A stretch of 64,000 nucleotides of DNA from Mycobacterium phage prophiGD15-1. Position 1 is the first letter of the stretch. Every line of letters starts with the position of its first letter. Shown here one piece after another: positions 1 to 64,000 of this stretch. A program made the translations under genes and the position numbers. The notes beneath the pieces are model-generated. The model worked only from the letters and a program-made list of their open reading frames with translations, ran no database searches and was not told where the DNA came from. The DNA is taken from the sequence record MW584180.1; one strand, 5' to 3'.

Positions 1-44
1 GGGGCGGTAGCTCAGTTGGTTAGAGCCGTGGACTCATAATCCGT
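1..44 (+). tRNA. Partial tRNA-Met-like gene (anticodon CAT): acceptor 5' strand, D-arm and anticodon arm only. No T-arm or 3' acceptor strand follows, so it is probably the tRNA-derived side of the prophage attachment junction.
   Basis: GGGGCGG-TA-GCTC-AGTTGGTTA-GAGC-C-GTGGA-CTCATAA-TCCGT closely matches the 5' 44 nt of bacterial elongator tRNA-Met (E. coli metT begins GGCUACGUAGCUCAGUUGGUUAGAGC...CUCAUAA). The downstream sequence TGGATGGGGTAGAATG cannot form a T-arm. Confidence 0.5.
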
Positions 45-137
45 TGGATGGGGTAGAATGAAGTGCAGATACTTGTCAAATCGCCTGGCAGAAGCCATAT
101 TGACGAAGTGTGCTAGGCCATGATGGGCCCTACGTAG

Positions 138-161
138 GCTACAGTGTAGGCTACAGTGGCG
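138..161 (+). repeat. Tandem direct repeat GGCTACAGTG-TA-GGCTACAGTG immediately upstream of int. Candidate integrase arm-type binding sites in the P' arm.
   Basis: Exact 10-bp direct repeat separated by 2 bp, located between the tRNA fragment and the int RBS (GAAGGAG at 163-169). Confidence 0.35.
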
Positions 162-178
162 GACGAAGGAGTTTGCTG

Positions 179-1429
179 ATGGAGCAAACGGAGCGAGTAA
201 AGAAGCGCCCCGCCTGTAAGTGCAAGCACGTCTACTTCGCACACCCCAATGAGGGCCCATGCAATCAATGCGGCGACTGCCCGAAGTATCGCGAACGTGA
301 GCGGCGTGAGCGCGGCGAGGGCGGCCTCTTCCAACGTGCCGACGGGATGTGGGTCGGGTCGGTGGAAGTCCCCTCCGAAGATGGATTGCGCCGCCGCCAG
401 ACTGTATCCGCGAAAGACAAGGGTGTGGCGCTGGACAAACTGCGAGACCTGCGGAGCGCCATCCGATCCGGTAAATCCCCAACCTCATCGAAGGTTCACC
501 TCGAACAGTGGCTTAACCACTGGCTCGAAACCATCCAGAAGCCCCGCGTCCGGCCAACGACCTATAAGTACTACGAGACCACTGTTCGGCTGTACATTCT
601 CCCATTCATTGATGGACGCACACAGCTAGGCAAGCTCACCCCAGCGCAAGTGCGCAAGATGATCGCCAAGAACGGAACACGTAACGCACAGAAGGCCCAC
701 CAAACCCTCGTCAAAGCATTGGGTGATGCGATGGACGAAGGCATGCTGGACAAGAACGTTGCCGCAGTTGTCGACAAACCCAAGCATGTCGCCATCGAGC
801 GCCAGCCATTCACGTTCGATGAGGCCCGCCAGATCATCGCCACCGCGATCAAACGCAACGACCCATGGGCCACGATGTGGGCGGCCATGTTCTTCACCGG
901 GGCCCGCCAAGGCGAGATCATCGGCATGGAATGGGACCGCTGCGACCTTGAGAAAGGACTGTTCGACTTCTCCTGGCAGCTCCAACAACTCCCGCCCGAA
1001 CTCCCCAGAGGATTCAAGCACCGCCCCTGCCATCTCTCCCTGGCGTGGACGAAGCCGAAGACGAAAGCCGGTGCCCGCGTGGCCCCCATGACTAAACCGC
1101 TACAGGCGATCATGGAGGCGTACGCCAAAACGGACACGGGTCCGAATCCACATGGGCTTGTGTGGCGCCACCCGGACGGACACCCGATCTCACCGACAGA
1201 TGCATCCGATGCGTGGCGCGCGCTAGTGAAAGCCGCCGACGTCCCATACCGATCGATGCACTCAGCGCGGCATACAACCGCCACTCTGCTCAACAATGCT
1301 GGCGTCAGCCAGGAGACCCGCATGAAGGTAGTCGGCCATTCATCGGCGGTGGCCCAGCAGATCTACGTACACGTCGACCACGAACCTGCCAGGGCAGCGC
1401 TTTCTAACCTCAACGAGCTGCTGAGCTAA
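179..1429 (+). CDS. int: Tyrosine integrase (phage integrase family). The ORF track offers an alternative start at 110.
   Basis: C-terminal catalytic block RSMHSARHTTATLL...VGHSS...YVHV supplies the R/H-x-x-R/Y tyrosine recombinase residues. The N-terminus has a Cys cluster and an arm-type DNA-binding-like segment (LFQRADGMWVGSVEV). The ATG at 179 follows a good SD. Confidence 0.9.
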   Translation: MEQTERVKKRPACKCKHVYFAHPNEGPCNQCGDCPKYRERERRERGEGGLFQRADGMWVGSVEVPSEDGLRRRQTVSAKDKGVALDKLRDLRSAIRSGKSPTSSKVHLEQWLNHWLETIQKPRVRPTTYKYYETTVRLYILPFIDGRTQLGKLTPAQVRKMIAKNGTRNAQKAHQTLVKALGDAMDEGMLDKNVAAVVDKPKHVAIERQPFTFDEARQIIATAIKRNDPWATMWAAMFFTGARQGEIIGMEWDRCDLEKGLFDFSWQLQQLPPELPRGFKHRPCHLSLAWTKPKTKAGARVAPMTKPLQAIMEAYAKTDTGPNPHGLVWRHPDGHPISPTDASDAWRALVKAADVPYRSMHSARHTTATLLNNAGVSQETRMKVVGHSSAVAQQIYVHVDHEPARAALSNLNELLS

Positions 1430-2217
1430 GGGCAGTTCGGGTAGATGGACATTGCGGTGCGTACGAACTCCACAGCCTGATCCAGAGGAGTATTCGTCTC
1501 CGCGCTGAGGGACTGCTGTACGAACTGCACGGTGTTGCCCTGAGTGAGTAGTGAGCATGATTGCCGTGCGTTGTGGGTCATCCCGTCCGCATCGGTGATA
1601 GTCCAGCCCAGTGCCCGCATCTTGCTCAAGAACTTCTGGTCGTAGACGGCGGGCTGCACGGCGGCGGGTTTTGGGCAGTAGTGCTCGAGTGCCGCGGTCA
1701 CGATGATCCGGGCTTTGTCGTACGGGTAGGCGGTCCGTTTTTCGGCGATAGTCATAGCCAGATCGACTATCTGCATGGACGGGTTGTCGCGGTGGGTGAC
1801 GCAGGTGGCTTGCCCCATCTGAATAAGTGCCCCGCGGTTTACGTCCGAGACCGGGATTCCTTGGCTGAAGACATCCGCTAGGTATGCGTCATCGACGGGT
1901 GATTTCGGATCTGCCGCAACAACCTTCGGTGACTCGGCAACGACAGTGGTCGGCGGCGCAGTGGGTTTTGGGCTTTGGCCGAAGAAGACGTATGCGCCAC
2001 CGGCAACCAATCCCGCGACCGCTGCTGTAGCGGCAAAGATGACTCCGCTGATCAACCAGTTGCGTCGGCGGGGATCGTCGTACGGTTCAGGCTCTTCAAG
2101 CTCTTCCGTCTCGGACCAGGCCGTGGGTGCGGTCTCTACAATACCGGTCTCAGCCAGTGCGGCAGGTGACACCATTGTCGGCTCTTGCTCTTCCATGAGC
2201 CCTCCCTTGACCTGCAC
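1426..2217 (-). CDS. Membrane-anchored protein with two tandem DUF732-like domains (mycobacterial secreted/envelope family).
   Basis: Central TM segment (LISGVIFAATAAVAGLVAGGAYVFF) and a Pro-rich linker. Two repeats fit the DUF732 pattern (…GQATC…, …EHYCP… and …QSCSLL…YPNCP). Confidence 0.55.
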   Translation of the reverse strand: MQVKGGLMEEQEPTMVSPAALAETGIVETAPTAWSETEELEEPEPYDDPRRRNWLISGVIFAATAAVAGLVAGGAYVFFGQSPKPTAPPTTVVAESPKVVAADPKSPVDDAYLADVFSQGIPVSDVNRGALIQMGQATCVTHRDNPSMQIVDLAMTIAEKRTAYPYDKARIIVTAALEHYCPKPAAVQPAVYDQKFLSKMRALGWTITDADGMTHNARQSCSLLTQGNTVQFVQQSLSAETNTPLDQAVEFVRTAMSIYPNCP

Positions 2218-2291
2218 ATTCTACGACTTGGGCAGTATTCTGCGTGCCCATCTGAGAATCGGCCAGGACCATTCATATCTGCATACTTCAA

Positions 2292-2564
2292 CTATCCCGC
2301 CGACTTCGCCTGAGCCTCTAAGTAGTAGGTCAGGATGGCGCGTAGGTCAGCTGAATTACCTCCTGCCGCTGCGCGGGCAATTGCCGCACGCTGCGGTTCT
2401 GCGCACCAGTTCGCGTATTCCATAGCCATCTTCCATGTCGGGAAGATGGACCCGCCGGTAATGCAACCCACTTTGGGCAAGTAATGTTTCACGACCCAAG
2501 GGAATCTGGGATGGGGCTTGTGAGATACCGTCCATCGCTCTGTGTCGCCGTAGCAATCAGTCAT
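2292..2564 (-). CDS. Hypothetical 90-aa protein. Its start is fused to junction repeat F.
   Basis: ORF with GAGG SD inside the conserved junction element. No recognisable domain. Confidence 0.45.
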   Translation of the reverse strand: MTDCYGDTERWTVSHKPHPRFPWVVKHYLPKVGCITGGSIFPTWKMAMEYANWCAEPQRAAIARAAAGGNSADLRAILTYYLEAQAKSAG

Positions 2565-2605
2565 CCCTCAATTATCCGCCGTTTCAACCGAAGTCGCGGT
2601 GTCTA
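2562..2605 (-). repeat. Gene-junction repeat, copy F (minus strand): TAGACACCGCGA-N17-GATAATTGAGG-g-ATG. It links the acyltransferase stop codon to the start of the 90-aa gene.
   Basis: The reverse complement of 2562-2605 reads ctagacaccgcgacttcggttgaaacggcggataattgagggatg. It matches the five plus-strand copies at 19014, 23616, 24224, 24771 and 25083. Confidence 0.8.
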
Positions 2606-3724
2606 GACGGCCACCACTTGCTTCCGTTTCTTCAACGCCAGAGTGCGTTTCTCAACAATGAACCAGCTCATTGCCGCCAGCGGCAGGGTTAGCAAGGTCG
2701 CCAAAACGAAGAAGGGGAACACCCCGAGTGTTCCGAGGCCGATGATGACGAGTAGCTGTTGGATGGGGAAGGCGTAGATGTACACCCCGTAGGAGAGGTC
2801 GTTGCGCAGGTTCGGGCGTTTGAGCATAGCGCCGGACGCTATGACGAGGTACGCCAAAGGGATTGCTGCCAACACCCGATAATTCGGTAGCAGCCCGGAG
2901 ATAAGCACCACTCCTGCCGCTAGTGCGATGAGCGACCAGCGGGCGGGAATCTTGTCCTGGTACTGGTAGATCAACGCCCCAGCCGCGAACATCACCGCGA
3001 ACCGGGTAACCATCTGGGGGATGGTCTGCATCGCGAACGCCGGATACCCGAACACCGCCGTCCCACACAGGGCGAGGACGAAAGCTACAGGGATAGTCGA
3101 GCGGTATTTCAGTAGTCCCGTGACACCGAGGATGGCGACGAAGATGTAGCAGCCCATCTCAAAGGTGAGGGTCCACAAAGACCCATTCCACACCCCTGGC
3201 CACGGCACATCCTGAGGTGTCCCACCAATACCGGGATAGAACGGGTTCAGCAGGCCGCCGTTGATGATGTAGGCGACCGCCGACATGGGGCTGGGCATCG
3301 TCCCATGCTTGATCCACACACTTACCGGTGCGATCACAAACGCGGTGATCAGTAGGCACACCCACAACCCGGGAAAGATCCGCAGGCAGCGGGCGGTGAA
3401 GTACGTCTTCGGATTGGGGTGCCGCATCCAACTGGACGTGATCAGAAACCCCGATACCGCGAAGAACCCATCCACCCCCACTTGCGAGAGCAATTGCGTG
3501 ATCGGCCTGGCGGGGATCTCATGGCCAGTCAGTGGCCAGGTGTGCCACAGGATCACAGAGGTGGCCAGGATTAGTCGCCATGCGTTGAGCGCGTTGTTGC
3601 GTGGGTCGAATACGCGTCCGAGCACTTCCCCTCCAGGGCTTGGTGATTGGACGATACGCCGCTTCAAGATCGCACGCAGGAGATTCCCAGCTTCGGGCAT
3701 GATTACTACGTTTGTAGTGATCAT
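2603..3724 (-). CDS. Acyltransferase family 3 (OafA/OatA-like integral membrane O-acyltransferase).
   Basis: 373 aa with ~10 predicted TM helices. The N-terminal motif NALNAWRLILATSVILWHTWPL is typical of acyltransferase_3 proteins. Confidence 0.75.
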   Translation of the reverse strand: MITTNVVIMPEAGNLLRAILKRRIVQSPSPGGEVLGRVFDPRNNALNAWRLILATSVILWHTWPLTGHEIPARPITQLLSQVGVDGFFAVSGFLITSSWMRHPNPKTYFTARCLRIFPGLWVCLLITAFVIAPVSVWIKHGTMPSPMSAVAYIINGGLLNPFYPGIGGTPQDVPWPGVWNGSLWTLTFEMGCYIFVAILGVTGLLKYRSTIPVAFVLALCGTAVFGYPAFAMQTIPQMVTRFAVMFAAGALIYQYQDKIPARWSLIALAAGVVLISGLLPNYRVLAAIPLAYLVIASGAMLKRPNLRNDLSYGVYIYAFPIQQLLVIIGLGTLGVFPFFVLATLLTLPLAAMSWFIVEKRTLALKKRKQVVAV

Positions 3725-3843
3725 GCGGATTCATCTGTCCGTAATGCCAACGACCCCTTCCATTCAACTAGCAGTCCGGTGTAACCTACGTCACACCACC
3801 TCGGGGGTGGCTCAAATCCCATATCGCACAAAGGCTTTCGGCG

Positions 3844-4572
3844 ATGCATGCTGCCCTCATCATCTTCACTATCACCACCATCGCATGGTCGCTGTGGGTA
3901 CGAAGACTCACGTGGCAATGCAAAATGGAAGTTGCCGCAAGCATTAACCTCGTTTTGCAGGCCGGGGCCGTGGTCTTAATGAGCCCGTGGGCATCCGAGG
4001 TGGTCGGCCTACGCCTGTACAGCCTGACGGGCCAGCACAACCTAGAGGACTTACTGGGCCACGACTTATATGTGATCGCTGCGAGCTCGGTGGTTTACCA
4101 CCTCATTTTGAGGCTCGATCAGCGCCAGATGGCTATCCGGTTTAAGACTCATGTCGAGCTGCCTGCGACGATATGCCTGCCCTTGATGTACGCCACGTTC
4201 ACCGCTGGCGCCGGTACTGAAATCTATCGGCGTGACTTTTTCCGGGTGCCGTGCGACTTCTGGCTGGCGTCCTACTGGTTCATCATGTGCGGCACCACCG
4301 CCTACCTGCTCGTCTACAGCGTTCTAGCACTGGTGCCCATGCTGCAAGCGCACGCCCGTCTCGCCCGCCTGTACCTCGTCGCCAGTGGGGCTGGAATAGG
4401 GGCTTGCGCGGCCCGGCTAGTCACCGCAGTGCTGCCCGATCACCTTCAGGACACGTTCACGGCTTCGATCATCGTGTGGTTTCTAGCCTGCTCATGTGGG
4501 GCGGCCTTCGCCCTCATCTCTGGCTATTCCTGGCTTCAGCGGCAGCGGGCCCTCATAGGGGCGGCCCCTTAG
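3844..4572 (+). CDS. Integral membrane protein of unknown function, ~6 TM helices.
   Basis: Hydrophobic segments run throughout the ORF. It is transcribed divergently from the acyltransferase operon and converges on the repressor gene. Confidence 0.55.
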   Translation: MHAALIIFTITTIAWSLWVRRLTWQCKMEVAASINLVLQAGAVVLMSPWASEVVGLRLYSLTGQHNLEDLLGHDLYVIAASSVVYHLILRLDQRQMAIRFKTHVELPATICLPLMYATFTAGAGTEIYRRDFFRVPCDFWLASYWFIMCGTTAYLLVYSVLALVPMLQAHARLARLYLVASGAGIGACAARLVTAVLPDHLQDTFTASIIVWFLACSCGAAFALISGYSWLQRQRALIGAAP

Positions 4573-4993
4573 GGTCATAGGCGTCACGATGAGGGAAAGA
4601 ACCGCCACCCATTCGCCGCTGGACCTCCGCGAGCAGTTCCATGTCGCTCGCATCACGGATGGACCCCGCTGTGCCGATTGGAGTGGGGGAACCGCCCGTG
4701 AGGATGTCGATAGCCGAACCTGGTTCCCATCGCAGTGCCGCGTCGAGCATGCGGAGAGTGGAGCCACGGGGGCGAGGCTTAGTCCCGTCGTTGTTTTCAA
4801 TGCGGGACTGAATCACATCCGACGGGCCGCCCGCCTCCTGCACCTCCGCCTGGCTCAACTTCAGTTCCTCACGCCGGGCACGAACCATTCGCCCGAGCCT
4901 CCCCCACTGCTCGCCTGTGGCCTTCGTCGCCTCCGTCATGCCCATAATCATCCGGAAAATATTCGGCAAACACAACCCGCGTTGGGCTAACAA
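4553..4993 (-). CDS. Putative immunity repressor (HTH XRE-family). The true start is probably an internal Met near 4939-4951.
   Basis: HTH segment RARREELKLSQAEVQEAGGPSDVIQSRIENN. Leftward gene, divergent from a cro-like HTH gene across a ~100-bp intergenic region. Confidence 0.55.
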   Translation of the reverse strand: MLAQRGLCLPNIFRMIMGMTEATKATGEQWGRLGRMVRARREELKLSQAEVQEAGGPSDVIQSRIENNDGTKPRPRGSTLRMLDAALRWEPGSAIDILTGGSPTPIGTAGSIRDASDMELLAEVQRRMGGGSFPHRDAYDPKGPPL

Positions 4994-5093
4994 CCGGCAT
5001 GTAATTCACGGCTTCACCTGCCAGAACCGGACTATTCGCACTGGTCTACAACATTTCCCGAACAAAGCCTTGTAATGCCCAGATATTTGCCGT
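4994..5093. promoter_or_regulatory. Divergent promoter/operator region of the immunity switch (repressor leftward, cro-like rightward).
   Basis: Non-coding gap between divergent HTH genes. It contains the partial palindrome cgtatgTTGGgacacatgCCAAcgg. Confidence 0.35.
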
Positions 5094-5426
5094 ATGTTGG
5101 GACACATGCCAACGGGTGCCAAACTCTCACAAGCCAGGGGTGATGACCGCCCGCTGCGGACCCCACCCCACGTGCCCATCGGCGCTCTACGTCTGGTCGC
5201 AGATATCACCCTCGATGAGCTCGCGGTAGGGATCGCCGAGATCTTGACCGTGAAGCAAGGGCGCGAGGCGACACCCCCGAGTCGAGGAACACTGTCCGCC
5301 ATTGAGTCCGGGCGGCGCGGCGCATCGGCAGAGCTCCTGTCTGCCATCGAGGAGTTCTTCCAACTGCCCGCCGGAACGATCACAACTACTTACCGCCCGC
5401 GCCCCAAGGCGCGATTCGCCGCTTAA
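5094..5426 (+). CDS. Cro-like HTH XRE-family regulator.
   Basis: HTH segment ITLDELAVGIAEILTVKQGREATPPSRGTLSAIESGRR. First rightward gene after the switch region. Confidence 0.5.
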   Translation: MLGHMPTGAKLSQARGDDRPLRTPPHVPIGALRLVADITLDELAVGIAEILTVKQGREATPPSRGTLSAIESGRRGASAELLSAIEEFFQLPAGTITTTYRPRPKARFAA

Positions 5427-5484
5427 CGAAAAGGCCCCCACCCGGTCCAGGGGTGAGGGCGCCGACAACCGAAAGAGGATCGGA

Positions 5485-6291
5485 ATGTCAGACATCCAGA
5501 ATATCAACACTGAGCTGGTCTTCATGGGAGACAACGGCGAGCCGTTCACAACGTCGATGGTGGTTGCCGCCGAAACCGAGAATGAGCATGCGTCGGTCAT
5601 AAAGACCGTGCGCAAGCACCTATCTGATCTAAATGAGGTCGGAAGGGTGCGATTTGAAATCCAACCCTTCGAAACTGCGGGTGGGACACAGCGCCGCGAG
5701 GTTGCCCAACTTGACGAGCCTGCCGCCGCACTGCTGATCACCAACCTCAAGGGCAGTCCGGTCGTGTGGGACTTCCGCAAGCGGCTGGTCGCTGGGTTCT
5801 ATGCCATGCGGCAAAAGCTCGCCGAGCGTTCCGCCGCGCACCCACTGCAGGGACCGGAACTACTAGCCGCAGCAGTACTCGAATCGCAGAAGATGATCGA
5901 GCAGCGCGACGCCCGCATTCACCAGCTGGAGCAGAAGGCGATCGAGGCGGCGCCGAAGGTGTCCTATGTAGACACCTATGTCACGGACGCCGACCTGCTG
6001 TCCGTCTCCACGGTTGCGTCCACGAATAGCGTCACTGAGAAGTGGCTACGAGAACTCCTGATCGCCAAGGACTGGATCTACAGCCAGCAGGACTCCAGAT
6101 GGTCAGAGAAGAAGCAACAGAAGGTCATCCGCAACCGGTACTCAGAGAAGGCCGACAAAAAGCGCTACTTCCGCCGCGTTGAGGTGCATGAGGCCCCCCG
6201 GTTCCGCGGCTCCGAGGTTATGCACACATTAAAGATCACGCCGCAGGGTGCCGAGGCCATCGCCCGGTTGATCGCGCGAGAGGCGGCATAG
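5485..6291 (+). CDS. Antirepressor-like protein (Rha/phage regulatory protein N-terminal domain).
   Basis: N-terminal ELVFMGDNGEPFTTSMVVAAETENEHASVIKTVRKHL resembles Phage_pRha. The ATG at 5485 has an AGAGGA SD. The ORF-track start at 5302 overlaps the cro-like gene. Confidence 0.55.
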   Translation: MSDIQNINTELVFMGDNGEPFTTSMVVAAETENEHASVIKTVRKHLSDLNEVGRVRFEIQPFETAGGTQRREVAQLDEPAAALLITNLKGSPVVWDFRKRLVAGFYAMRQKLAERSAAHPLQGPELLAAAVLESQKMIEQRDARIHQLEQKAIEAAPKVSYVDTYVTDADLLSVSTVASTNSVTEKWLRELLIAKDWIYSQQDSRWSEKKQQKVIRNRYSEKADKKRYFRRVEVHEAPRFRGSEVMHTLKITPQGAEAIARLIAREAA

Positions 6292-6626
6292 TGTCCGGGC
6301 CACCGGGCATCGCCCGGATATCAGCCCTCGGATGTAGTACCGGATCTGAGGATCGGATCGACAAGGTGATCCGCGCGGCGCACAAGGCGCTTGCCGAATC
6401 GGGCGTGTCGATGTCGCCACGCAAGGTCAGCAAGATCGTTCGAAGGTTCGGCATGAACGCCCGAAAGCGCGGCGTCAGCTTCCATGAGTACTTGTCAGCA
6501 GAGGCGAATCTATCACCGGCACAACAGCGTTACCTGGCGGCCAACCCTGACCTACAGATAGTCATCGCGTACGCCGATCCCACCGGAGAGACCGCAGTAA
6601 ACAACGTTATGCGAGGGAGAGGGTAG
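6291..6626 (+). CDS. Hypothetical protein.
   Basis: ORF in the rightward early operon. Its start overlaps the upstream stop. Confidence 0.4.
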   Translation: MSGPPGIARISALGCSTGSEDRIDKVIRAAHKALAESGVSMSPRKVSKIVRRFGMNARKRGVSFHEYLSAEANLSPAQQRYLAANPDLQIVIAYADPTGETAVNNVMRGRG

Positions 6627-7018
6627 TGAAGGGTCACGTGAAGCGCACACTGGAAGTGCTGGAGGCGCTGGGGTTCACGCGCGAAGACGACATGTTCGGG
6701 CGGCGCAAGTGGACTTTCCATCATTCATTCGCCCCCGACGAACAGCTGAAAGTATGGGAGGGCCAATCCGAGGCGGCATGCATAGCCGTGCAACAGAAGG
6801 CGCATGCCATTTCCGAAACCGGATCTTCCGGCCCATCCATGCCGAAAACCGTTGGGCGGCGCAAGCATCGCGTCAAAGCGGCGTCATCGGGGCCGACCAT
6901 CATGGAACTTGCTCGACAGGACCGTGAAGCCGCGCGCAAGGAACGGGACGCTGCACGGATCGAGGCGCGCCACGATCGCGAGATCAAGTCGCTAATGCAA
7001 CCCGGTTGGGGGAGGTGA
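6626..7018 (+). CDS. Hypothetical protein.
   Basis: ORF. GTG/ATG start overlaps the upstream stop. Confidence 0.4.
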   Translation: MKGHVKRTLEVLEALGFTREDDMFGRRKWTFHHSFAPDEQLKVWEGQSEAACIAVQQKAHAISETGSSGPSMPKTVGRRKHRVKAASSGPTIMELARQDREAARKERDAARIEARHDREIKSLMQPGWGR

Positions 7019-7022
7019 CGGC

Positions 7023-7265
7023 ATGAGCATCTCTGAATCCCGCCTACGGGAGATTGTTCGACAAGAGATAGAGCGGTCAGCCGGCGGTGCGCTACCCGCA
7101 GATGAGGCAGCCAAGTATTGCGGCATCTCGAGGTCAACACTCGATAGGCATCGGCAGGCTGGACACGTGCTGCCGCGTCACCCCGGAAGCCGACCCGTCT
7201 ACCTCATCTCTGAGCTCAACCGATTTCTTGAAGACCTGCCGTCAGAACCCAAGGGGGCGGCATGA
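7023..7265 (+). CDS. Excisionase-like / MerR-type HTH DNA-binding protein.
   Basis: AAKYCGISRSTLDRHRQAG is an Xis/AlpA-type helix-turn-helix. 80 aa. Confidence 0.45.
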   Translation: MSISESRLREIVRQEIERSAGGALPADEAAKYCGISRSTLDRHRQAGHVLPRHPGSRPVYLISELNRFLEDLPSEPKGAA

Positions 7266-7951
7266 CGACAAAGGGTGTGCCGACACCATTGGGTGTTCGC
7301 GTCCGCACGCTACGTAAACAGCGTGGGTGGAGTGCGCAGAAGTTGTCCGATGAGACTGGCGGCTCGGTAACCCGTTGCGTGATTGCGGATTTGGAACTAG
7401 GCCGTAAAAAAGATCTATCACTAACCGCGGGAGCGGCTATCGCCTCCGCGTTTGGGATGAGCGTAGATCAGCTGATCTACTACGCCGTACCTGCGGGGGC
7501 GTATGCGGCCGCGCGGGAAATCGTGGATACAAAGCTCCGACTGGAATCAATTCTCGCCCTCAAGGCTGTTGCTGTTTGGCCGAAAGAGCCGTGGCCGCCA
7601 CCCGATCCAGCTTCATCAGCATCAATAGCCGACGGCCTAGCCGAGTACGGACGCAGTGAAAGTGTGTCTAGTGACTGGCTTGCGGTTCCAGAAGCGCCCC
7701 TGAGGCGTATCAAGGCTCTCCTACAGCGCAGCGTTCGCGCACTGAATGAGGCAACCAGCGACGGCTCCACGGTGGGTAGGAACTACTGGAAGGGCGCGCA
7801 TGACAGCCTGCGACAAGTGCTACTTGGTCTCGGTCTATCACACATAGACATCGCCGCAGTGGAAGAAGATTCTTACCCCGCACGTCAGGCACAGCGACGC
7901 GCGTTCGATGAGTTGCGAGAACTAGACGAAGAGATCGGCCTGGAGCCATGA
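7262..7951 (+). CDS. HTH XRE-domain protein with a C-terminal domain of unknown function.
   Basis: VRVRTLRKQRGWSAQKLSDETGGSVTRCVIADLELGRKKDLSLTAGAAIASAFGMSVDQL. Confidence 0.5.
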   Translation: MTTKGVPTPLGVRVRTLRKQRGWSAQKLSDETGGSVTRCVIADLELGRKKDLSLTAGAAIASAFGMSVDQLIYYAVPAGAYAAAREIVDTKLRLESILALKAVAVWPKEPWPPPDPASSASIADGLAEYGRSESVSSDWLAVPEAPLRRIKALLQRSVRALNEATSDGSTVGRNYWKGAHDSLRQVLLGLGLSHIDIAAVEEDSYPARQAQRRAFDELRELDEEIGLEP

Positions 7952-8130
7952 AGGAATTTTCTGTGGATGATCAGGTTCGGCAGATGATCGAGCGCCTGAC
8001 ACGCGAGGCGGACCGCCTTGATGCGGACAGCTCTGCGCGGATAGCAGCGTTTCATCGCGACGAAACACGCCAGGCCAAGAAACGTAGAGAAGCCCATCTC
8101 ATTGCCGCCGGCCGACGAATACACAACTGA
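7948..8130 (+). CDS. Hypothetical small protein.
   Basis: 60-aa ORF coupled to the upstream gene. Confidence 0.3.
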   Translation: MKEFSVDDQVRQMIERLTREADRLDADSSARIAAFHRDETRQAKKRREAHLIAAGRRIHN

Positions 8131-9192: not shown

Positions 9193-9419
9193 ACATCCGA
9201 GAACTAGGCGCCGTGGACCAGCTGTTCGCGGCAGCCAACGACCACCTTTCCGAAGCGGTGATCACCGTGAAGGAAATGGTTGATGCACATGGACCAGAAG
9301 AGGTGTGGGACAGATTCATCCGTGTGCTGACCGAACGTATTGAAGCAGGCGATTCGGATATCAAGACCATCGTCCATATTCACGCTACAGCGTTGATCCG
9401 GTTAGCGAGGCAGTCATGA
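9189..9419 (+). CDS. Hypothetical protein.
   Basis: ORF with an ATGA overlap start. Confidence 0.35.
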   Translation: MNIRELGAVDQLFAAANDHLSEAVITVKEMVDAHGPEEVWDRFIRVLTERIEAGDSDIKTIVHIHATALIRLARQS

Positions 9420-9561
9420 GCCTGTATGAATTCCACTGGCGCAATGGTGTATCCGAAGAGCTGTATGGCGATAGTGCTGCCGACGCTCTCGTCCGTGCTG
9501 GTTATGGAAGTGGCGCACTAGCCGCGCTCGACTACTACGAAGAGAAGCGGGGGGCGTCACA

Positions 9562-9759
9562 GTGAGGGATCAAATCATTGCCGTCATGGTTGTAGCTGTC
9601 CTCGCCCTGATGATCGCATGGCAGACATCCGATACTCGGGAGTGGCGTAAGGAAAACAAGGCCCTGCGCCGTGAAATCGCCCGCCTGTCAAAGCATCCCT
9701 CTACCTATGAGCCTGAACCACTCCCGTATATGCAGAGGTTGTATGCGGACGATGAGTAG
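9562..9759 (+). CDS. Small membrane protein.
   Basis: N-terminal TM IIAVMVVAVLALMIAW. Confidence 0.35.
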   Translation: MRDQIIAVMVVAVLALMIAWQTSDTREWRKENKALRREIARLSKHPSTYEPEPLPYMQRLYADDE

Positions 9760-9949
9760 GTACACGATCAATCATGACGAGGCCGATGCGCGGGTGTTGT
9801 TGATGTGCGCGGAAATGCTCAAGCACCTTGACCTAGCCGGCCGTGGCGGTGTTGATGTGTCCGCTTCTATTGCCGAGGTTATGGCCAGGCGTGATGAAGT
9901 GTTGCGTTCCAGGGGTATTGAGCCGAACGGGCAGGGGACATGCAAATGA
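9752..9949 (+). CDS. Hypothetical small protein.
   Basis: ORF overlapping the upstream stop. Confidence 0.3.
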   Translation: MSRYTINHDEADARVLLMCAEMLKHLDLAGRGGVDVSASIAEVMARRDEVLRSRGIEPNGQGTCK

Positions 9950-21440: not shown

Positions 21441-21639
21441 TTCACGCTGGTCGCACATACTGCGCAGGCCAAGGTATCTCACGCATCTTCCACGCCTGCG
21501 TAGGGTTGGCCGCAGTGACCCAAACGATAGGCATATCGCGTCCGGGAACTACCCGAGTGGTAGTTAGACACTCAACTTCACCACCGGTTGCGGTGGTTAC
21601 GTAGACACGCATTCTAGCTTCAATACCCATACGTCTAGC

Positions 21640-59210: not shown

Positions 59211-59335
59211 AACGTCACGATACGATTCAAGTAGGCGCCAACGCTGAAAAGCGCTGCCCGAGATGCGAAACCGTCAAGCCCGTCACGGCATTCTCGGTTG
59301 TCAGTTCTCAAATGACCTGTCGCATTCTCATCTAA
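59208..59335 (+). pseudogene. Small Zn-finger-like ORF (KRCPRCETVKPV…) whose 3' end runs into the transposon terminus. Probably a phage gene truncated by the Tn7-like insertion.
   Basis: The reading frame continues into the TGTCGCATTCTCAT terminal repeat and ends at a TAA inside it. Confidence 0.3.
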
Positions 59336-59388
59336 TCTGTCGCAACCGCGTGTCGTTCTCATTTGATCTGTCGTACGCCTCTTAACAT
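59318..59388 (+). repeat. Tn7-like transposon terminus (tnsA-proximal, Tn7-R equivalent): four TGTCG(C/T)-initiated putative TnsB-binding repeats.
   Basis: TGTCGCATTCTCATCTAATC / TGTCGCAACCGCG / TGTCGTTCTCATTTGATC / TGTCGTACGCCTC. The terminal 5'-TGT and reiterated TTCTCAT…ATC are Tn7-family hallmarks. Confidence 0.6.
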
Positions 59389-60147
59389 TTGGGTGTGCAA
59401 GCGTCTCGGGCGCTGGTTGCGCCGCAGATTGCTAGTGACGTTGACGTGGAGTTCGTCGCCGATGGTCAACGCCACAGAGTACCGCTGGTTGAGTGCGCGA
59501 TGCTCAGATTTGATTTGGATTGCTCACCTGCCCGCAACTTCCCGAATTTTAGAGGTCAAAGCAACTACCCAGGCCTGTGGTGGTTTGCTACGACTGGCCA
59601 GCATGTAGGTCATGAATCCTGGCTGGAACGTGATCATCTGATGCTGCTCGATGCTGATCCGCACGTTGTGGGTGTGGCGTCGCAGCCATTTCGGCTGCAT
59701 TGGCCTGGTGGCACTCACCATGTCCCGGACTACTTTGCTAGATATGCCGATGGCGGTGTGACGGTTCTTGACGTGCGCGATGACAAGCGCATCACTGAGG
59801 ATGATCAGCTCAAGTTTGATCTTTCGGAAATTGCTTGTCGCACAGTGGGTTGGGGTTACCGCCAGTTAGGTGTGCCTGATCAGGTGTTGGTGGCGAACAT
59901 TCGGTGGCTATCGGGGTATAGACACCCCCGAGTGTGCCGCGAGGATGTGGCGGAGTCGTTGCTCGCGGTGTTCGCCGAACCGGCGCGGCTATTGTCTGGC
60001 GCTCAAATCGTCGGTGATCGGCTGCATGTGTTGCCGGTGCTGTTTCATTTGTTGTGGCACAGGCAGTTGTCGACAGATTTGGCTGGCGCGTTGCTATCGG
60101 AGTCGGCGGTGGTCGGCCCTGCCGGATGGTGGGCGCATTCGTGTTGA
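59389..60147 (+). CDS. tnsA: TnsA-like transposition endonuclease (start codon uncertain).
   Basis: HESWLERDHLMLLDADPHVVGVASQPF…VPDYFARYADGGVTVLDVRDDK aligns with the Tn7 TnsA catalytic region (SDLELAVFLSLEWESSVLDIREQFP…DFLVDCKDG…VKP). Confidence 0.65.
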   Translation: MGVQASRALVAPQIASDVDVEFVADGQRHRVPLVECAMLRFDLDCSPARNFPNFRGQSNYPGLWWFATTGQHVGHESWLERDHLMLLDADPHVVGVASQPFRLHWPGGTHHVPDYFARYADGGVTVLDVRDDKRITEDDQLKFDLSEIACRTVGWGYRQLGVPDQVLVANIRWLSGYRHPRVCREDVAESLLAVFAEPARLLSGAQIVGDRLHVLPVLFHLLWHRQLSTDLAGALLSESAVVGPAGWWAHSC

Positions 60148-62216
60148 GGGCAGCTGCGGTACGCGTGGGTGATGAGATCCGTTTAGCTGGTGAACGTTTC
60201 ACGGTCTTATCGATCACCGATGGTGCGGCGCGATTAATCAGTGCTGTCGGCGAGCGCAGTTCGGTGCCACTGCCGGCGTTGTGCACGGACCCGTCGTTGG
60301 AATTGGTGGCAACGTCATGGCCGCCATTGTGCTCCGAAGAGGCTTTGACTGGCGTACCCCAAGAGGTGGTGGAACGGGCACGCTGGTGGGAACAGCATCT
60401 GCTTGACGTGATCACCGGCCGCTCCGGGACCGGCATGGACACTGACAGTGCTGATTTCGACCCCGCGGTGACGACGCTGCGCCGCCGGGAGATGGCCAAG
60501 CTCGCCGAACTTGCCGATGAAGGTCATGTTTTGACGTTGCGGACGCTGCAGCGCCAACGCAAGGCCTACCAGCGTGACGGGCTGCTGGGTGTGCTGGATG
60601 GGCGTTACCGGCCGAACCGGCCCGTGCATGGGCGAGTCGATCCGCGGGTGAGCGAGACGGTAGTTGGTCTTATCGAGGCCGAAACTGAGTTGTCGACGGG
60701 CACGGTGCGCCGCATGCAGCGCAAGACCGCACGGGCGTTGAAGGCTCAGTACGGCGATGAGGCACCGCAAATGCCCTCGAAGGCAACATTTTATCGTCTG
60801 GTGGGCCGATTATCTGCGGGCAAGCACACGTTCGGGTCAGCCCGCACGCGCAGGTCGTTGGCCAAGCAGCCAGACAAACCGTTCGGGACGTTGACAGTGG
60901 CCCGCCCCGGCGAGGTGGTGGAGGTCGATTCCACACCCCTGGATGTAGCGGTGCGCTTCGATGACGGCACCGTTGGCCGGGTCGAGTTGATTGGGATGGT
61001 CGACTGTGCCACCCGCACGATCGCCGCAGCGGTATTGCGGCCAACAACCACGGCGGTGGATGCGGCGCTGCTGTTGGCGCGATCGTTGACCCCGGAGCCG
61101 ATGCGCCCAGGCTGGTCTGATGCGGTGCGGATGACGGCCTCAGTGCTACCCCATCACAGTTTGACCACTCTGGATCAGCGGTTCGCGGCCGCCGCTGCCC
61201 GGCCCGTGATCGCCCCAGAAACCATTGTGATCGATCACGGCAAAGCGTATCTGTCGCAGACATTTTCGCAGGCCTGCTGCACGCTGGGGATCAATTTGCA
61301 GCCCGCGCACCCGGATGAGCCGACGGACAAACCGAAGATCGAACGCACTATCGAGTCGGTCGGCACGATGTTCGCCTCCGAGGTGGCCGGATATCTGGGG
61401 TCCTCGGTGGAGCGGCGCGGCAAGCACGCCGAAAAACGTGCCGTGTGGTCGATCGTGCAGTTGCAAGCGCTACTGGATGAATGGATTGTCACCGCCTGGC
61501 AGAACCGGCCCCACGACGGGCTGCGCGACCCCTTAACTCCGGGAAAGACGTTGACTCCCAATGAGAAATACGCAGCCCTGGTCGAGGTGGCCGGGTATGT
61601 GCCGGTGGCCTTGAGCGGTGATGACTACATCGAACTGCTGCCGACGCGGTGGCGCAAGATCAACTCCTACGGGGTGCGGATCAACAATCGCCACTACGAC
61701 GCCAAAGCCTTCAACCCCTACCGCGGCCAATCTTCGGGGGTCGGTAAGAAGAACAATAGGTGGGAAGTGCATTTCGACCCGTGCGATGTGTCCCGGGTTT
61801 GGGTGCGCAATCACCACGAATCGGGCTGGATCCAGGCCAACTGGACGCACCTGCGGACCGCGCCGGTGCCGTTCGGGGAAACGATCTGGAAGCAGAGCCA
61901 ACAGATCCTGGCCGAGCGCGGCCAGCGTGCCGCGACGCAAGCCGAGATCGCCGAAGCGGCCGAAGAATTGCTGACTCGGGCCGCTGCCGGGCCGCCAGAG
62001 CAGCTCGTGGACAAGAAGATCCGCCGGAAGCTGGTTCGCGCCCAGCACTCCACCGTGACACCGCTGTGGCCACGCCCAGCACCCGATTTACCCGCCGACG
62101 GCCCTGTGGTGGCCGATCGCGGCGATAGGGACAACGACGATGTGATTGATGTGGCGGCAGTGGTGCCGCTTCCGGTGTTCGATGCCCGCAAGGAGGCCAA
62201 ATTGTGGCGACTGTAA
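60126..62216 (+). CDS. tnsB: TnsB-like DDE transposase (Mu/retroviral integrase superfamily).
   Basis: ~700 aa. The motifs GEVVEVDSTPLD…, IVIDHGKAY and PDEPTDKPKIER supply the D, D, E catalytic triad. The ATG at 60126 overlaps the tnsA stop. Confidence 0.75.
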   Translation: MVGAFVLRAAAVRVGDEIRLAGERFTVLSITDGAARLISAVGERSSVPLPALCTDPSLELVATSWPPLCSEEALTGVPQEVVERARWWEQHLLDVITGRSGTGMDTDSADFDPAVTTLRRREMAKLAELADEGHVLTLRTLQRQRKAYQRDGLLGVLDGRYRPNRPVHGRVDPRVSETVVGLIEAETELSTGTVRRMQRKTARALKAQYGDEAPQMPSKATFYRLVGRLSAGKHTFGSARTRRSLAKQPDKPFGTLTVARPGEVVEVDSTPLDVAVRFDDGTVGRVELIGMVDCATRTIAAAVLRPTTTAVDAALLLARSLTPEPMRPGWSDAVRMTASVLPHHSLTTLDQRFAAAAARPVIAPETIVIDHGKAYLSQTFSQACCTLGINLQPAHPDEPTDKPKIERTIESVGTMFASEVAGYLGSSVERRGKHAEKRAVWSIVQLQALLDEWIVTAWQNRPHDGLRDPLTPGKTLTPNEKYAALVEVAGYVPVALSGDDYIELLPTRWRKINSYGVRINNRHYDAKAFNPYRGQSSGVGKKNNRWEVHFDPCDVSRVWVRNHHESGWIQANWTHLRTAPVPFGETIWKQSQQILAERGQRAATQAEIAEAAEELLTRAAAGPPEQLVDKKIRRKLVRAQHSTVTPLWPRPAPDLPADGPVVADRGDRDNDDVIDVAAVVPLPVFDARKEAKLWRL

Positions 62217-63253
62217 ATAGATTCGAGGCCGTCAACCCGCTCGATGATCGCCGCCAGCCCACCACCACCTTGGAGGGCTGGCGGCGTTTCGTTGAGGCCG
62301 ATCCACCCGAGTTCACGCTCCTGGACGATACGCAGTGGCGCAGTCTGGATGTGCGGGACCGGATGCTCTACGACGAGGCCCGAATCGCCCATCACTCCGA
62401 ACTGGTCGTGGTCACCACGTCGGCGATCGCCCGGATCAACAACGAAGGCCGGCTGCTGACCCTGCTCAATCAGTGCGAGATCGGAGCCCGCCGCGGTTTG
62501 ATCATTTCCGGGGATGCGGCCACCGGGAAGACCACGGCCATCAAACAGATGGGCCGCACCCATGAACTGCGGGTGCGGGGACGCCTGACCTACGACGCCA
62601 CGTACGACGCCGTCGCGGGCCGTATCCCGGTGGTATACGTGACGGCCCCGCCCAAGGGCTCACCACGCAAACTGGCGATGGAATTCGCCCGTTTCCTGGG
62701 GCTGCCGATGACTATGAACGCCCGTGCGAACGTCACCGACATCGCCGACGCGGTCTGCCAAGTCCTCATCGATGCCCGCACCGACATCGTGGTTGTCGAC
62801 GAGATCCACAACCTGAACCTGGAAACCCGCGCCGGAGAAGACCTCTCGGATCATCTCAAATATTTCACCGAACACCTGCCCGCTACGTTCATCTACGCCG
62901 GCATCGACGTCGAACGTTCCGGGGTATTCACAGGTACCCGCGGAAAACAACTCGCTGGACGCTGCGGAGTTATCCACACCCAGGCCTTCCCCTACAACGA
63001 GGAATGGATCTCGCTGGTGGCAGGGATGGAGAACACGTTGCGACTGCACCACCACGAACCCGGAACCCTTGTCGCCGACGCCAAATACTTGCATCGGCGC
63101 ACCAACGGCATGATCGGCTCGCTGGCGCACCTGATCCGCTCAGCAGCTATCCGTTCCATCATCGACGAGACCGAAGCCGTCACCCGGGCACTGATGGATG
63201 CCACCCTGCTCGACTACGCCGCGCAAAGCGCTGCGGCCCGAACCGCCAGCTGA
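62204..63253 (+). CDS. tnsC: TnsC-like AAA+ ATPase.
   Basis: Walker A GDAATGKTTAI and Walker B IVVVDEIHNL. Overlaps the tnsB stop. Confidence 0.75.
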   Translation: MATVNRFEAVNPLDDRRQPTTTLEGWRRFVEADPPEFTLLDDTQWRSLDVRDRMLYDEARIAHHSELVVVTTSAIARINNEGRLLTLLNQCEIGARRGLIISGDAATGKTTAIKQMGRTHELRVRGRLTYDATYDAVAGRIPVVYVTAPPKGSPRKLAMEFARFLGLPMTMNARANVTDIADAVCQVLIDARTDIVVVDEIHNLNLETRAGEDLSDHLKYFTEHLPATFIYAGIDVERSGVFTGTRGKQLAGRCGVIHTQAFPYNEEWISLVAGMENTLRLHHHEPGTLVADAKYLHRRTNGMIGSLAHLIRSAAIRSIIDETEAVTRALMDATLLDYAAQSAAARTAS

Positions 63254-64000
63254 TGAACACCGCCACCGCCGCAGGACGCGCCTGGCCGGCCGGGCCGCGT
63301 CAACGCTTACCACGTGTAGTGACCCCATTCCGCACCGAGACAGTGAGTTCGTATATCGACCGGCTAGCCCACGCCAACCACCTCACCCGAGGCCGGTTGC
63401 AGTACCACGTCGCCGCAGGCACCTACCAGACCCGCGCCGACTGGCTCGCCGTCGCCACCGGAATCGCCGAAAACATCCTGCGCGAACGGCTCATTGGGTT
63501 CGGAGCGGCCAACGGCACCAACGCCAAACAACAAGCCCGGGTACGGCCCGCCTGCCGGCTGTGCATGGCCCGTCGCGGTGTCTACGAGCCCGTCCACTGC
63601 TGGCTGCCCGCGTACGAAACTGTATGTTTTCGCCACTTACGCTGGATCGGCCCCGGCGCGGCCACCTGGGAAGACCAACACGACCTGAGCAATCACCCCG
63701 ATATCGTGGTCGCCGCCCGCCGCCACCGCCAGCTGATCCGAGCCCACCGCGACCTCGCCGGCAGCGCCTTGTCCGAGGCCCGCCACATCCTGACCTGGTG
63801 GTCCCGGGTCAACCAAGACAGCGGCGACGACCAGACAGACCCGACCACGTATCTGCAGGCCTACCCAGACCTGATCACGATCGCTACCGTGCTGGCCGAT
63901 CACCGCCACCAAGTCGCCGCCGGTCCCTGCACCAGGCATCCGATCTGGTCTGAGCACCTGCTGGGTTTGATCAACACACACGCAACCACCATCCGCGACG
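63254..64000 (+). CDS. tniQ: TniQ/TnsD-family target-selection protein (partial, continues past the window).
   Basis: Frame-2 translation from ATG 63254: MNTATAAGRAWPAGPRQRLPRVVTPFRTETVSSYIDRLAHANHLT…CRLCMARRGVYEPVHCWLPAYETVCFRHLRW (TniQ N-terminal zinc-finger fold). Start overlaps the tnsC stop (ATGA). Confidence 0.65.

Follow-up and report, generated by a model that had tools for sequence, protein, structure and literature searches.

A probable glycopeptidolipid acetyltransferase gene between the integrase and repressor genes of a Mycobacterium abscessus prophage

Glycopeptidolipids (GPLs) set the smooth or rough morphotype of Mycobacterium abscessus, its virulence traits and apparently its susceptibility to phages. 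The present analysis concerns a membrane O-acetyltransferase gene, atf, in a 64,000-nucleotide stretch of DNA (the window) from Mycobacterium phage prophiGD15-1 (MW584180.1), together with the three genes, gp2, gp3 and gp5, that share with it the interval between the integrase and the immunity repressor. An earlier note on this DNA had described these genes as an accessory island and had offered, as one of several roles for the acetyltransferase, that of a modulator of cell-wall glycolipids; this role is right and had already been published, as the identical MAB_1725c acetylates GPL (PMC10400925).

The closest described system is that of Illouz et al. 2023 (J Biol Chem, PMC10400925), in which a search for paralogues of Atf1 and Atf2 led to MAB_1725c in the prophage prophiATCC19977-1 and MAB_3448 in the chromosome. 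Deletion of MAB_1725c alone left a GPL profile like that of the wild type, mono-O-acetylated GPL-3 built up in the triple mutant (atf1-atf2-MAB_1725c), acetylated GPL was absent from the quadruple atf mutant, and MAB_1725c by itself brought mono- and di-O-acetylated GPL-3 back to the quadruple mutant (PMC10400925). MAB_1725c had a higher activity than MAB_3448, and its acetylation of 6-deoxytalose was established there by multiple deletions, single-gene complementation, thin-layer chromatography, matrix-assisted laser desorption/ionisation mass spectrometry and nuclear magnetic resonance. The three enzymes differed in substrate range, Atf1 using non-acetylated GPL only, Atf2 mono-acetylated GPL only and MAB_1725c both, and GPL acetylation was linked to the GPL-2a/GPL-3 ratio and to hyper-methylation (PMC10400925). 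The published identities of MAB_1725c are 65% to Atf1, 53% to Atf2 and 79% to MAB_3448 (PMC10400925). In the library searched, MAB_1725c is named in no other paper.

The acetyltransferase gene and its glycopeptidolipid substrate

Positions 1-8000 of the window, and likewise positions 39001-59300, match Mycobacterium phage prophiGD17-2 (cluster MabA1, from M. abscessus GD17; MW584161.1) at 100% identity, and the legend of Fig. S15 in PMC10400925 gives prophiATCC19977-1 and prophiGD17-2 as 100% identical across the left ~7 kb segment. Because of these two identities, the window acyltransferase is, by its sequence, the same gene as MAB_1725c. PMC10400925 also names prophiGD17-2 explicitly and reports low-level lysogenic expression of its atf from RNA-seq. 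Induction of the prophage region under infection-like or co-culture conditions has also been reported (bioRxiv 10.1101/2024.09.23.614414). For this prophage, the literature already covers the gene and where it lies, as well as its expression in the lysogen and its biochemical role. The present results add refinements, which are a shorter atf start, a variable slot with its breakpoints, upstream elements, the strict co-occurrence of atf and gp2, and the seven-transmembrane-helix (7TM) fold of gp5 with its coupling to the repressor.

The open reading frame (ORF) at 2603-3724 on the minus strand matched Pfam Acyl_transf_3 (PF01757) at E 2.3e-29 and 102.9 bits (cut-off 31), over profile positions 1-322 of 326, and phrog_3333 O-acetyltransferase at 2.3e-35. 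Both family assignments made by the earlier note, Acyl_transf_3 here and DUF732 for gp2, lie above the Pfam cut-offs. In the numbering of a protein of 340 amino acids (aa), Atf carries an R17-X10-H28 motif (H28 at least 98% and R17 at least 90% conserved in 120 homologues), FFAVSG at 54-59 and RCLR at 79-82, the F, F, S and G of the one and the two R of the other reaching at least 98% conservation across the same 120. The corresponding motif definitions, R/K-X10-H in transmembrane (TM) helix 1, FFXISG-type in TM helix 2 and RXXR, come with mutagenesis from PMC7448272, in which the His is essential in OafA and invariant in characterised members. The best 120 of 4087 Atf homologues (E <= 1e-10) were all AT3 proteins of 57-96% identity, and within this set all those with a named organism came from Mycobacterium or Mycobacteroides. 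Atf is also 78% identical to a widespread 346-aa chromosomal M. abscessus paralogue (cluster P0009), which agrees with the published 79% for MAB_3448. Atf had no match by sequence to solved structures and none in NCBIfam.

The Pfam match spans nearly all of the 340 aa, so an SGNH domain is absent; the C-terminus lies 22 residues past the AT3 match and no second Pfam domain was found. As read from these profile matches, Atf is of the AT3-only subclass, lacking both a fused SGNH domain and an 11th helix. The earlier note had given the protein ten TM helices, a number predicted from family membership and the near-full-length profile match; a Kyte-Doolittle scan (threshold 1.5) resolved only the more hydrophobic segments and not ten.

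The deposited annotation of prophiGD17-2 and prophiGD15-1 extends atf to ATG 3724, giving 373 aa. This start was rejected for GTG 3625, which is most likely the true start and gives 340 aa, the annotated form being over-extended by 33 codons. GTG 3625 is favoured because GGAGG stands 6 nt upstream of it, because GC content at third codon positions (GC3) is 0.78 downstream of it and 0.56 within the 33-codon extension, because a 1-nt indel occurs among relatives within the extension, because Atf homologues, among the matches listed, span just ~90% of the 373-aa query, and because the 340-aa form starting VLGRVFDPRNN is called by the Prokaryotic Genome Annotation Pipeline and in three sister prophage annotations, the homologues likewise beginning at this sequence.

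The best explanation, with a probability of about 0.85 for the whole, is that the interval forms the accessory region on the lysogeny side of a cluster MabA1 M. abscessus prophage, in which atf is a GPL acetyltransferase of MAB_1725c identity and its neighbours are separate modules. Atf would then be an AT3-only integral-membrane enzyme, expressed at a low level from the prophage, that would take non- and mono-acetylated GPL and acetylate the 3- and 4-hydroxyls of its 6-deoxytalose. By extension from OafA and Oac mutagenesis (PMC7448272), acetyl-CoA would be engaged via the RXXR arginines together with the Arg and His of the R-X10-H motif in TM helix 1; as the AT3 family suggests, transfer of the acetyl group to the sugar would then take place at the membrane and involve no SGNH partner. 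Because Atf1, Atf2 and MAB_3448 of the host do the same chemistry, the effect in a wild-type lysogen would be a backup or a dosage shift in GPL acetylation, and hence in the balance of GPL-2a/GPL-3 and of methylation, with no new surface structure. Prophage content could in this way shift GPL composition among isolates. That surface chemistry may vary by prophage content through a prophage-borne GPL acetyltransferase is a point already made and tested (PMC10400925).

Several considerations weigh against this explanation. The single deletion of MAB_1725c is silent for GPL, which leaves the selective benefit to phage or host unexplained, and the complementation strain retained the other prophage genes, that for DUF732 among them, so that a helper role of gp2 is possible. 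The identities to Atf1 and Atf2 are those given in the paper. A consensus sigma-70 promoter scan of 1300-5200 found none.

Boundaries and modules of the interval

The features of the interval and its boundaries are collected in Table 1. The ORF list of window positions 1-8000 gave a plus-strand integrase that ends at 1429, three ORFs that read leftward (1426-2217, 2292-2564 and 2603-3724), one that reads rightward (3844-4572), a helix-turn-helix (HTH) gene on the minus strand at 4553-4993 and, beyond it, a rightward HTH gene and an antirepressor, the latter identified as Rha/KilAC by profile search. All four genes placed between integrase and repressor by the earlier note were recovered in the ORF list and profile searches, including the divergent membrane protein beside atf at 3844-4572(+). 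Profile searches back the family assignments, and on this evidence the ORFs with family matches are real genes and not chance ORFs. The deposited annotation lists, in order, an integrase, a membrane protein, a hypothetical protein, a 'membrane protein + acetyltransferase domain', a membrane protein and an immunity repressor. The HTH_31 match of the repressor, at 1.7e-4, lies under the Pfam cut-off.

Table 1. Features of the integrase-repressor interval and its boundaries (window coordinates)
Feature	Coordinates	Strand	Evidence
attL common core, left prophage junction at attB-5 / tRNA-Met site	1..59	.	Sequence match; PMC8092301
Tyrosine integrase	179..1429	+	Pfam Phage_integrase 1.4e-17 and Phage_int_SAM_3; phrog_1 3.6e-65; annotated gene 1 of prophiGD17-2
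gp2, predicted type-II-anchored envelope protein with two DUF732 domains	1426..2196	-	Pfam; hydropathy; AlphaFold2 (AF2)
Conserved 52-nt element upstream of gp2, candidate promoter	2207..2258	-	TANNNT (-10-like) hexamer TAGAAT
gp3, 90-aa orphan ORF	2292..2564	-	Fills ~300-bp variable slot (~2259-2560) between atf and DUF732 genes
atf (= MAB_1725c), probable AT3-only membrane O-acetyltransferase of glycopeptidolipid	2603..3625	-	Pfam; PHROG; motifs; paralogue identity; PMC10400925
Conserved atf non-coding leader, candidate promoter region	3626..3690	-	Shine-Dalgarno GGAGGGG and TANNNT hexamer; conserved in all five atf prophages
Inverted repeat GCATGATTACTAC-N4-GTAGTGATCATGC, atf/gp5 divergent intergenic region	3697..3726	.	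13-nt arms, 92% complementary
gp5, predicted 7-transmembrane-helix protein, phrog_950 ('GP55 protein')	3844..4572	+	phrog_950 1.2e-55; AF2
Immunity repressor (HTH), right-hand interval boundary	4553..4993	-	phrog_2838 transcriptional repressor 2.5e-30; annotated immunity repressor

At the left end, the attL core is 95% identical both to the opening 58 bp of numerous other MabA1 prophage records and to the internal attP sites of lytically grown phiGD phages. The description of the integration site as attB-5 is that of PMC8092301. MabA1-type phages are described in the literature as unusual in rebuilding the 5' end of tRNA-Met, so that tRNA transcription after integration must use a phage promoter; ARAGORN detected no complete tRNA in the window. 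Sequences identical to gp2, gp3 and gp5 occur on 447-518 contigs (497 for gp2), which fits the report that MabA prophages occupy the dominant clinical clade (PMC8092301). At the far end of the window, past ~59.3 kb (59300-64000), the sequence diverges from prophiGD17-2 through inserted transposase, DNA-binding and RNA-binding genes, and this insert is 99.4% identical to prophiGD20-1.

Six other prophage records with atf were compared: prophiGD102-1, GD91-2, GD02-2, GD90-1, CCUG48898T-2 and prophiGD17-2. Across related prophages atf is 97-99% and full-length gp2 94-97% identical, and gp2 adjoins atf in five other prophage records. The slot between the two genes holds one or two small ORFs, in four unrelated sets, and its breakpoints are abrupt: on the gp2 side homology ends at 2225-2258, and it resumes on the atf side at 2560-2562, which makes the variable slot essentially gp3. 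The gp3 protein had no match in Pfam, PHROG, NCBIfam or PADLOC, and no homologue outside its own 90% cluster was found among 5.8 billion proteins. Its codon-position signal is weak (GC3 0.63), and gp3 is best described as a putative gene, a swappable orphan ORF.

The idea of one co-inherited four-gene island was rejected: gp5 is tied to the repressor, gp3 is swappable and gp2 has its own upstream element, and the comparative loci show separate modules in place of the unit proposed in the earlier note. The leftward operon of atf, gp3 and gp2 described there stands as far as co-orientation is concerned, with gaps of 38 and 95 bp, and is no more than a putative single operon, the DUF732 gene probably having its own promoter.

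Capture of an atf cassette from the MAB_3448 locus together with a neighbouring hydrolase was also considered, and was rejected because the hydrolases are unrelated; the alpha/beta hydrolase of prophiGD91-2 and the hydrolase beside the chromosomal paralogue gave a best E of 0.022 over 15 residues. At the prophiGD91-2 (3594-4376) and prophiGD02-2 (2686-3288) loci, an alpha/beta hydrolase gene lies divergent from atf, where the window has gp5. The chromosomal MAB_3448-like atf has a 194-aa Phage_integrase fragment ~2 kb downstream (9228-9812 of that locus), which hints that this copy too is near a decayed mobile element.

The gp2 ORF covers 1426-2217, and its most likely start is ATG 2196, which has GGGAGGG upstream and gives 256 aa. 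The protein matched Pfam DUF732 (PF05305) in two stretches, at E 1.6e-21 and 76.9 bits (cut-off 22.4). From its N-terminus on, it has an acidic tail of 45 residues, the sequence RRRNW, a TM helix, a linker rich in Pro and the two DUF732 domains; hydropathy gave LISGVIFAATAAVAGLVAG as the single hydrophobic anchor and AF2 placed a helix at 47-72. By the positive-inside rule, the N-terminus is predicted to face in and the C-terminus out. Both DUF732 domains are modelled as four-helix domains with two cysteines each, the second with a predicted local distance difference test (pLDDT) score of 94-98, and C214 and C255 are near-invariant or invariant in a 48-sequence alignment. The two-domain layout, at ~200-230 aa, is common among 121 representative relatives recovered by a profile-free search. 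The N-terminal anchor behaves as a module, being fused to other ectodomains in prophiGD91-2 and prophiGD43A-1. Searches of gp2 against the Protein Data Bank (PDB) gave no match by sequence and nothing below E = 1 with Foldseek, and NCBIfam gave a single weak sub-threshold match, to the CU044_5270 family (17.3 bits, cut-off 100).

The 52 nt upstream of gp2 also occur (2088-2139 of the comparison locus) in prophiGD27-1, which is without atf and gp2, and there they precede an unrelated gene. Their core, CGTA(G/A)(A/G)AT(G/T)TGCAGG, is conserved in six prophages, and a TANNNT hexamer (TAGAAT, TAAAAT or TAGGAT) stands ~20 nt 5' of the start codon in all six. Because the element also precedes an unrelated gene and the hexamer is kept, gp2 probably has its own promoter, and the element is a candidate lysogenic promoter of the integrase-proximal gene.

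Upstream of atf, ~65 nt are kept in atf prophages even where the neighbouring gene differs, and the 1-nt indel makes the stretch 3626-3690 incompatible with coding. The TANNNT hexamer of this leader is TATCGT in the window and TACAGT in relatives, which is consistent with a promoter role, and the RNA fold of the leader is no better than that of shuffles. Farther upstream, the ACTAC-N4-GTAGT core of the inverted repeat is kept in the diverged relatives prophiGD102-1 and CCUG48898T-2; elsewhere in the window this core has no exact match and one site with 1 mismatch, at 21548-21561. The RNA fold around the repeat likewise does not surpass shuffles (z -0.03). The repeat is a possible operator. Terminator-like hits in 1300-5200 were disregarded because they lie inside coding sequence, and an Rfam search of window positions 1-8000 at E <= 0.1 gave no match.

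The 7TM protein and alternative readings

The AF2 model of gp5 has seven long helices at pLDDT 91.7, in place of the six TM helices of the earlier note. From the Lys and Arg residues that follow helix 1 and lie at the C-terminus, the N-terminus would be out and the C-terminus in. An identical protein is listed for M. abscessus ATCC 19977 as UniProt B1MNB0. The gp5 gene runs towards the repressor gene, the two sharing 20 bp at their ends, and this convergent arrangement recurs: in all seven phages examined, from several clusters, the 3' end of the gp5-family gene overlaps a convergent HTH/repressor gene by 14-23 bp. Among them are MalagasyRose (gp43/gp44) and Rakim, of cluster E (gp56/gp55), and the gp5-HTH pair spans 4003-5098, 3913-5002, 5351-6533 (prophiGD91-2), 4262-5459 (prophiGD02-2), 3956-5153 and 3956-4922 of the comparison loci. 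In prophiGD91-2 and GD02-2 an alpha/beta hydrolase gene and an HTH gene stand between atf and gp5. From this arrangement of genes, gp5 belongs to the immunity-repressor module and not to atf.

It may be that gp5, and not atf, is the defence gene of the interval, a prophage-expressed exclusion or abortive-infection membrane protein following the logic of Butters gp30/gp31 or Sbash gp30/gp31. This is an unlikely reading, although it is compatible with a GPL acetyltransferase role of atf and not exclusive of it. The phrog_950 family has homologues in 228 phage records, mostly of M. smegmatis phages, and lay in an integrase/repressor neighbourhood in each of the seven inspected; the conserved convergent overlap is kept with diverse HTH partners; and membrane-protein prophage defence near immunity genes is established in mycobacteriophages (PMC7542560). 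The gp5 alignment also has invariant polar residues within helices, R20, N66, H73 and D131, which hints at a specific activity or interaction. On the other side, gp5 had no match in PADLOC, Pfam or NCBIfam, and its Foldseek hits in the PDB were generic 7TM bundles, G-protein-coupled receptors and rhodopsins, at E ~0.02 and TM-scores of 0.5-0.6. Homology to these receptors was not accepted, the similarity being that of a generic fold.

A second alternative is that the prophage Atf, with or without gp2, alters GPL acetylation enough to keep the same or different phages from adsorbing, in the manner of Sf6 Oac acting on O-antigen. The gene is a true homologue of Sf6 Oac, it lies one gene from the integrase and attL, it is lysogenically expressed (PMC10400925), and GPL status tracks phage susceptibility in M. 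abscessus, no smooth strain being efficiently killed (PMC8092298); phage I3 requires GPL in M. smegmatis (PMC8092298). Against this, host enzymes already di-acetylate the same sugar, the wild-type GPL profile of the MAB_1725c single deletion means no conversion of a normal host, and atf is present in only about half of MabA prophages (PMC10400925). The therapeutic phages BPs and Muddy reportedly need trehalose polyphleates and not GPL (PMC10465359), and PADLOC-DB v2 (E <= 0.01) returned no defence family for gp2, gp3, Atf or gp5. Because non-lysogens already have the modification and loss of MAB_1725c alone is silent, exclusion by atf is not supported, nor is it refuted, and it is considered very unlikely.

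A wider proposal, and a long shot, is that the pairing of atf and gp2 is functional and, in lysogens, retunes GPL acetylation or acetylates a second surface glycolipid, altering GPL-sensitive phage adsorption or host recognition, while in parallel the phrog_950 7TM protein would be a widespread exclusion protein of temperate mycobacteriophages.

Least credible is a two-component system in which Atf would move the acetyl group across the membrane and the DUF732 protein would present the acceptor, perhaps not GPL, or do the final transfer, the role of SGNH in OafA and OatA: among 50,697 phage records the full-length gp2 homologues number five and each adjoins atf, the two genes stay 94-99% conserved while the intervening DNA is replaced, gp2 is predicted to face outward with paired cysteines and the need of AT3-only proteins for a partner is debated in the field (PMC9558356), but the co-occurrence is among close prophage relatives and may reflect shared descent, the chromosomal paralogue is without a DUF732 neighbour within 6 kb, prophiGD91-2 has atf but joins the gp2 anchor to another ectodomain, DUF732 lacks a catalytic signature and gave no fold match, whether to SGNH or to any enzyme, and gp2 seems to be under its own promoter.

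With atf read as a GPL acetyltransferase, the interval does not point to a new kind of system.

Comparison with known acetyltransferases

In a tblastn comparison, Atf was 25.6% identical to Oac of Shigella phage Sf6 over 84% of the protein (E 6e-10), and the search also recovered a set of Burkholderia phage acetyltransferases. The analogy to seroconversion drawn by the earlier note therefore holds for homology, as that E value indicates, and not for conversion of a wild-type surface, as the MAB_1725c single deletion is silent. Sf6 Oac and its kin (OacB/C/D, PhiV10 and the Burkholderia phage acetyltransferases) are AT3-only homologues that have R/K-X10-H, FFxxSG and RXXR in common with Atf, and in the Sf6 Oac type, as in the window, the acetylase gene is prophage-expressed and lies beside the integrase of a temperate phage, with one gene between atf and the integrase in the present case. 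The window differs in that its acceptor would be a mycobacterial outer-membrane glycolipid and not the O-antigen of lipopolysaccharide, and in that the host already makes the modification, so that no new serotype would follow from atf.

OafA and OafB of Salmonella and OatA of Staphylococcus have an AT3 domain with TM1 and RXXR residues that are common to Atf and essential in OafA, but they carry an SGNH fusion where Atf is AT3-only. Gordonia phage Doggs gp30 is an AT3 protein of 31% identity over 96% of the protein, described as Atf-like in PMC10400925, and differs from Atf in its distant sequence and its host. In gp2, the DUF732 domains and the family Cys pair are shared with mycobacterial DUF732 exported proteins, to which gp2 adds an acidic cytoplasmic tail and a TM anchor.

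The chromosomal Atf1, Atf2, MAB_3448 and M. smegmatis Atf are AT3-only enzymes whose acceptor is the 6-deoxytalose of GPL, as for the window atf, which differs from them in its place on a prophage near the integrase, outside the gpl locus, and in a specificity broader than that of Atf1 or Atf2. The closest counterpart is MAB_1725c of prophiATCC19977-1, which is the same gene in the same position between integrase and repressor, and no difference was found except in the annotated start, 373 vs 340 aa.

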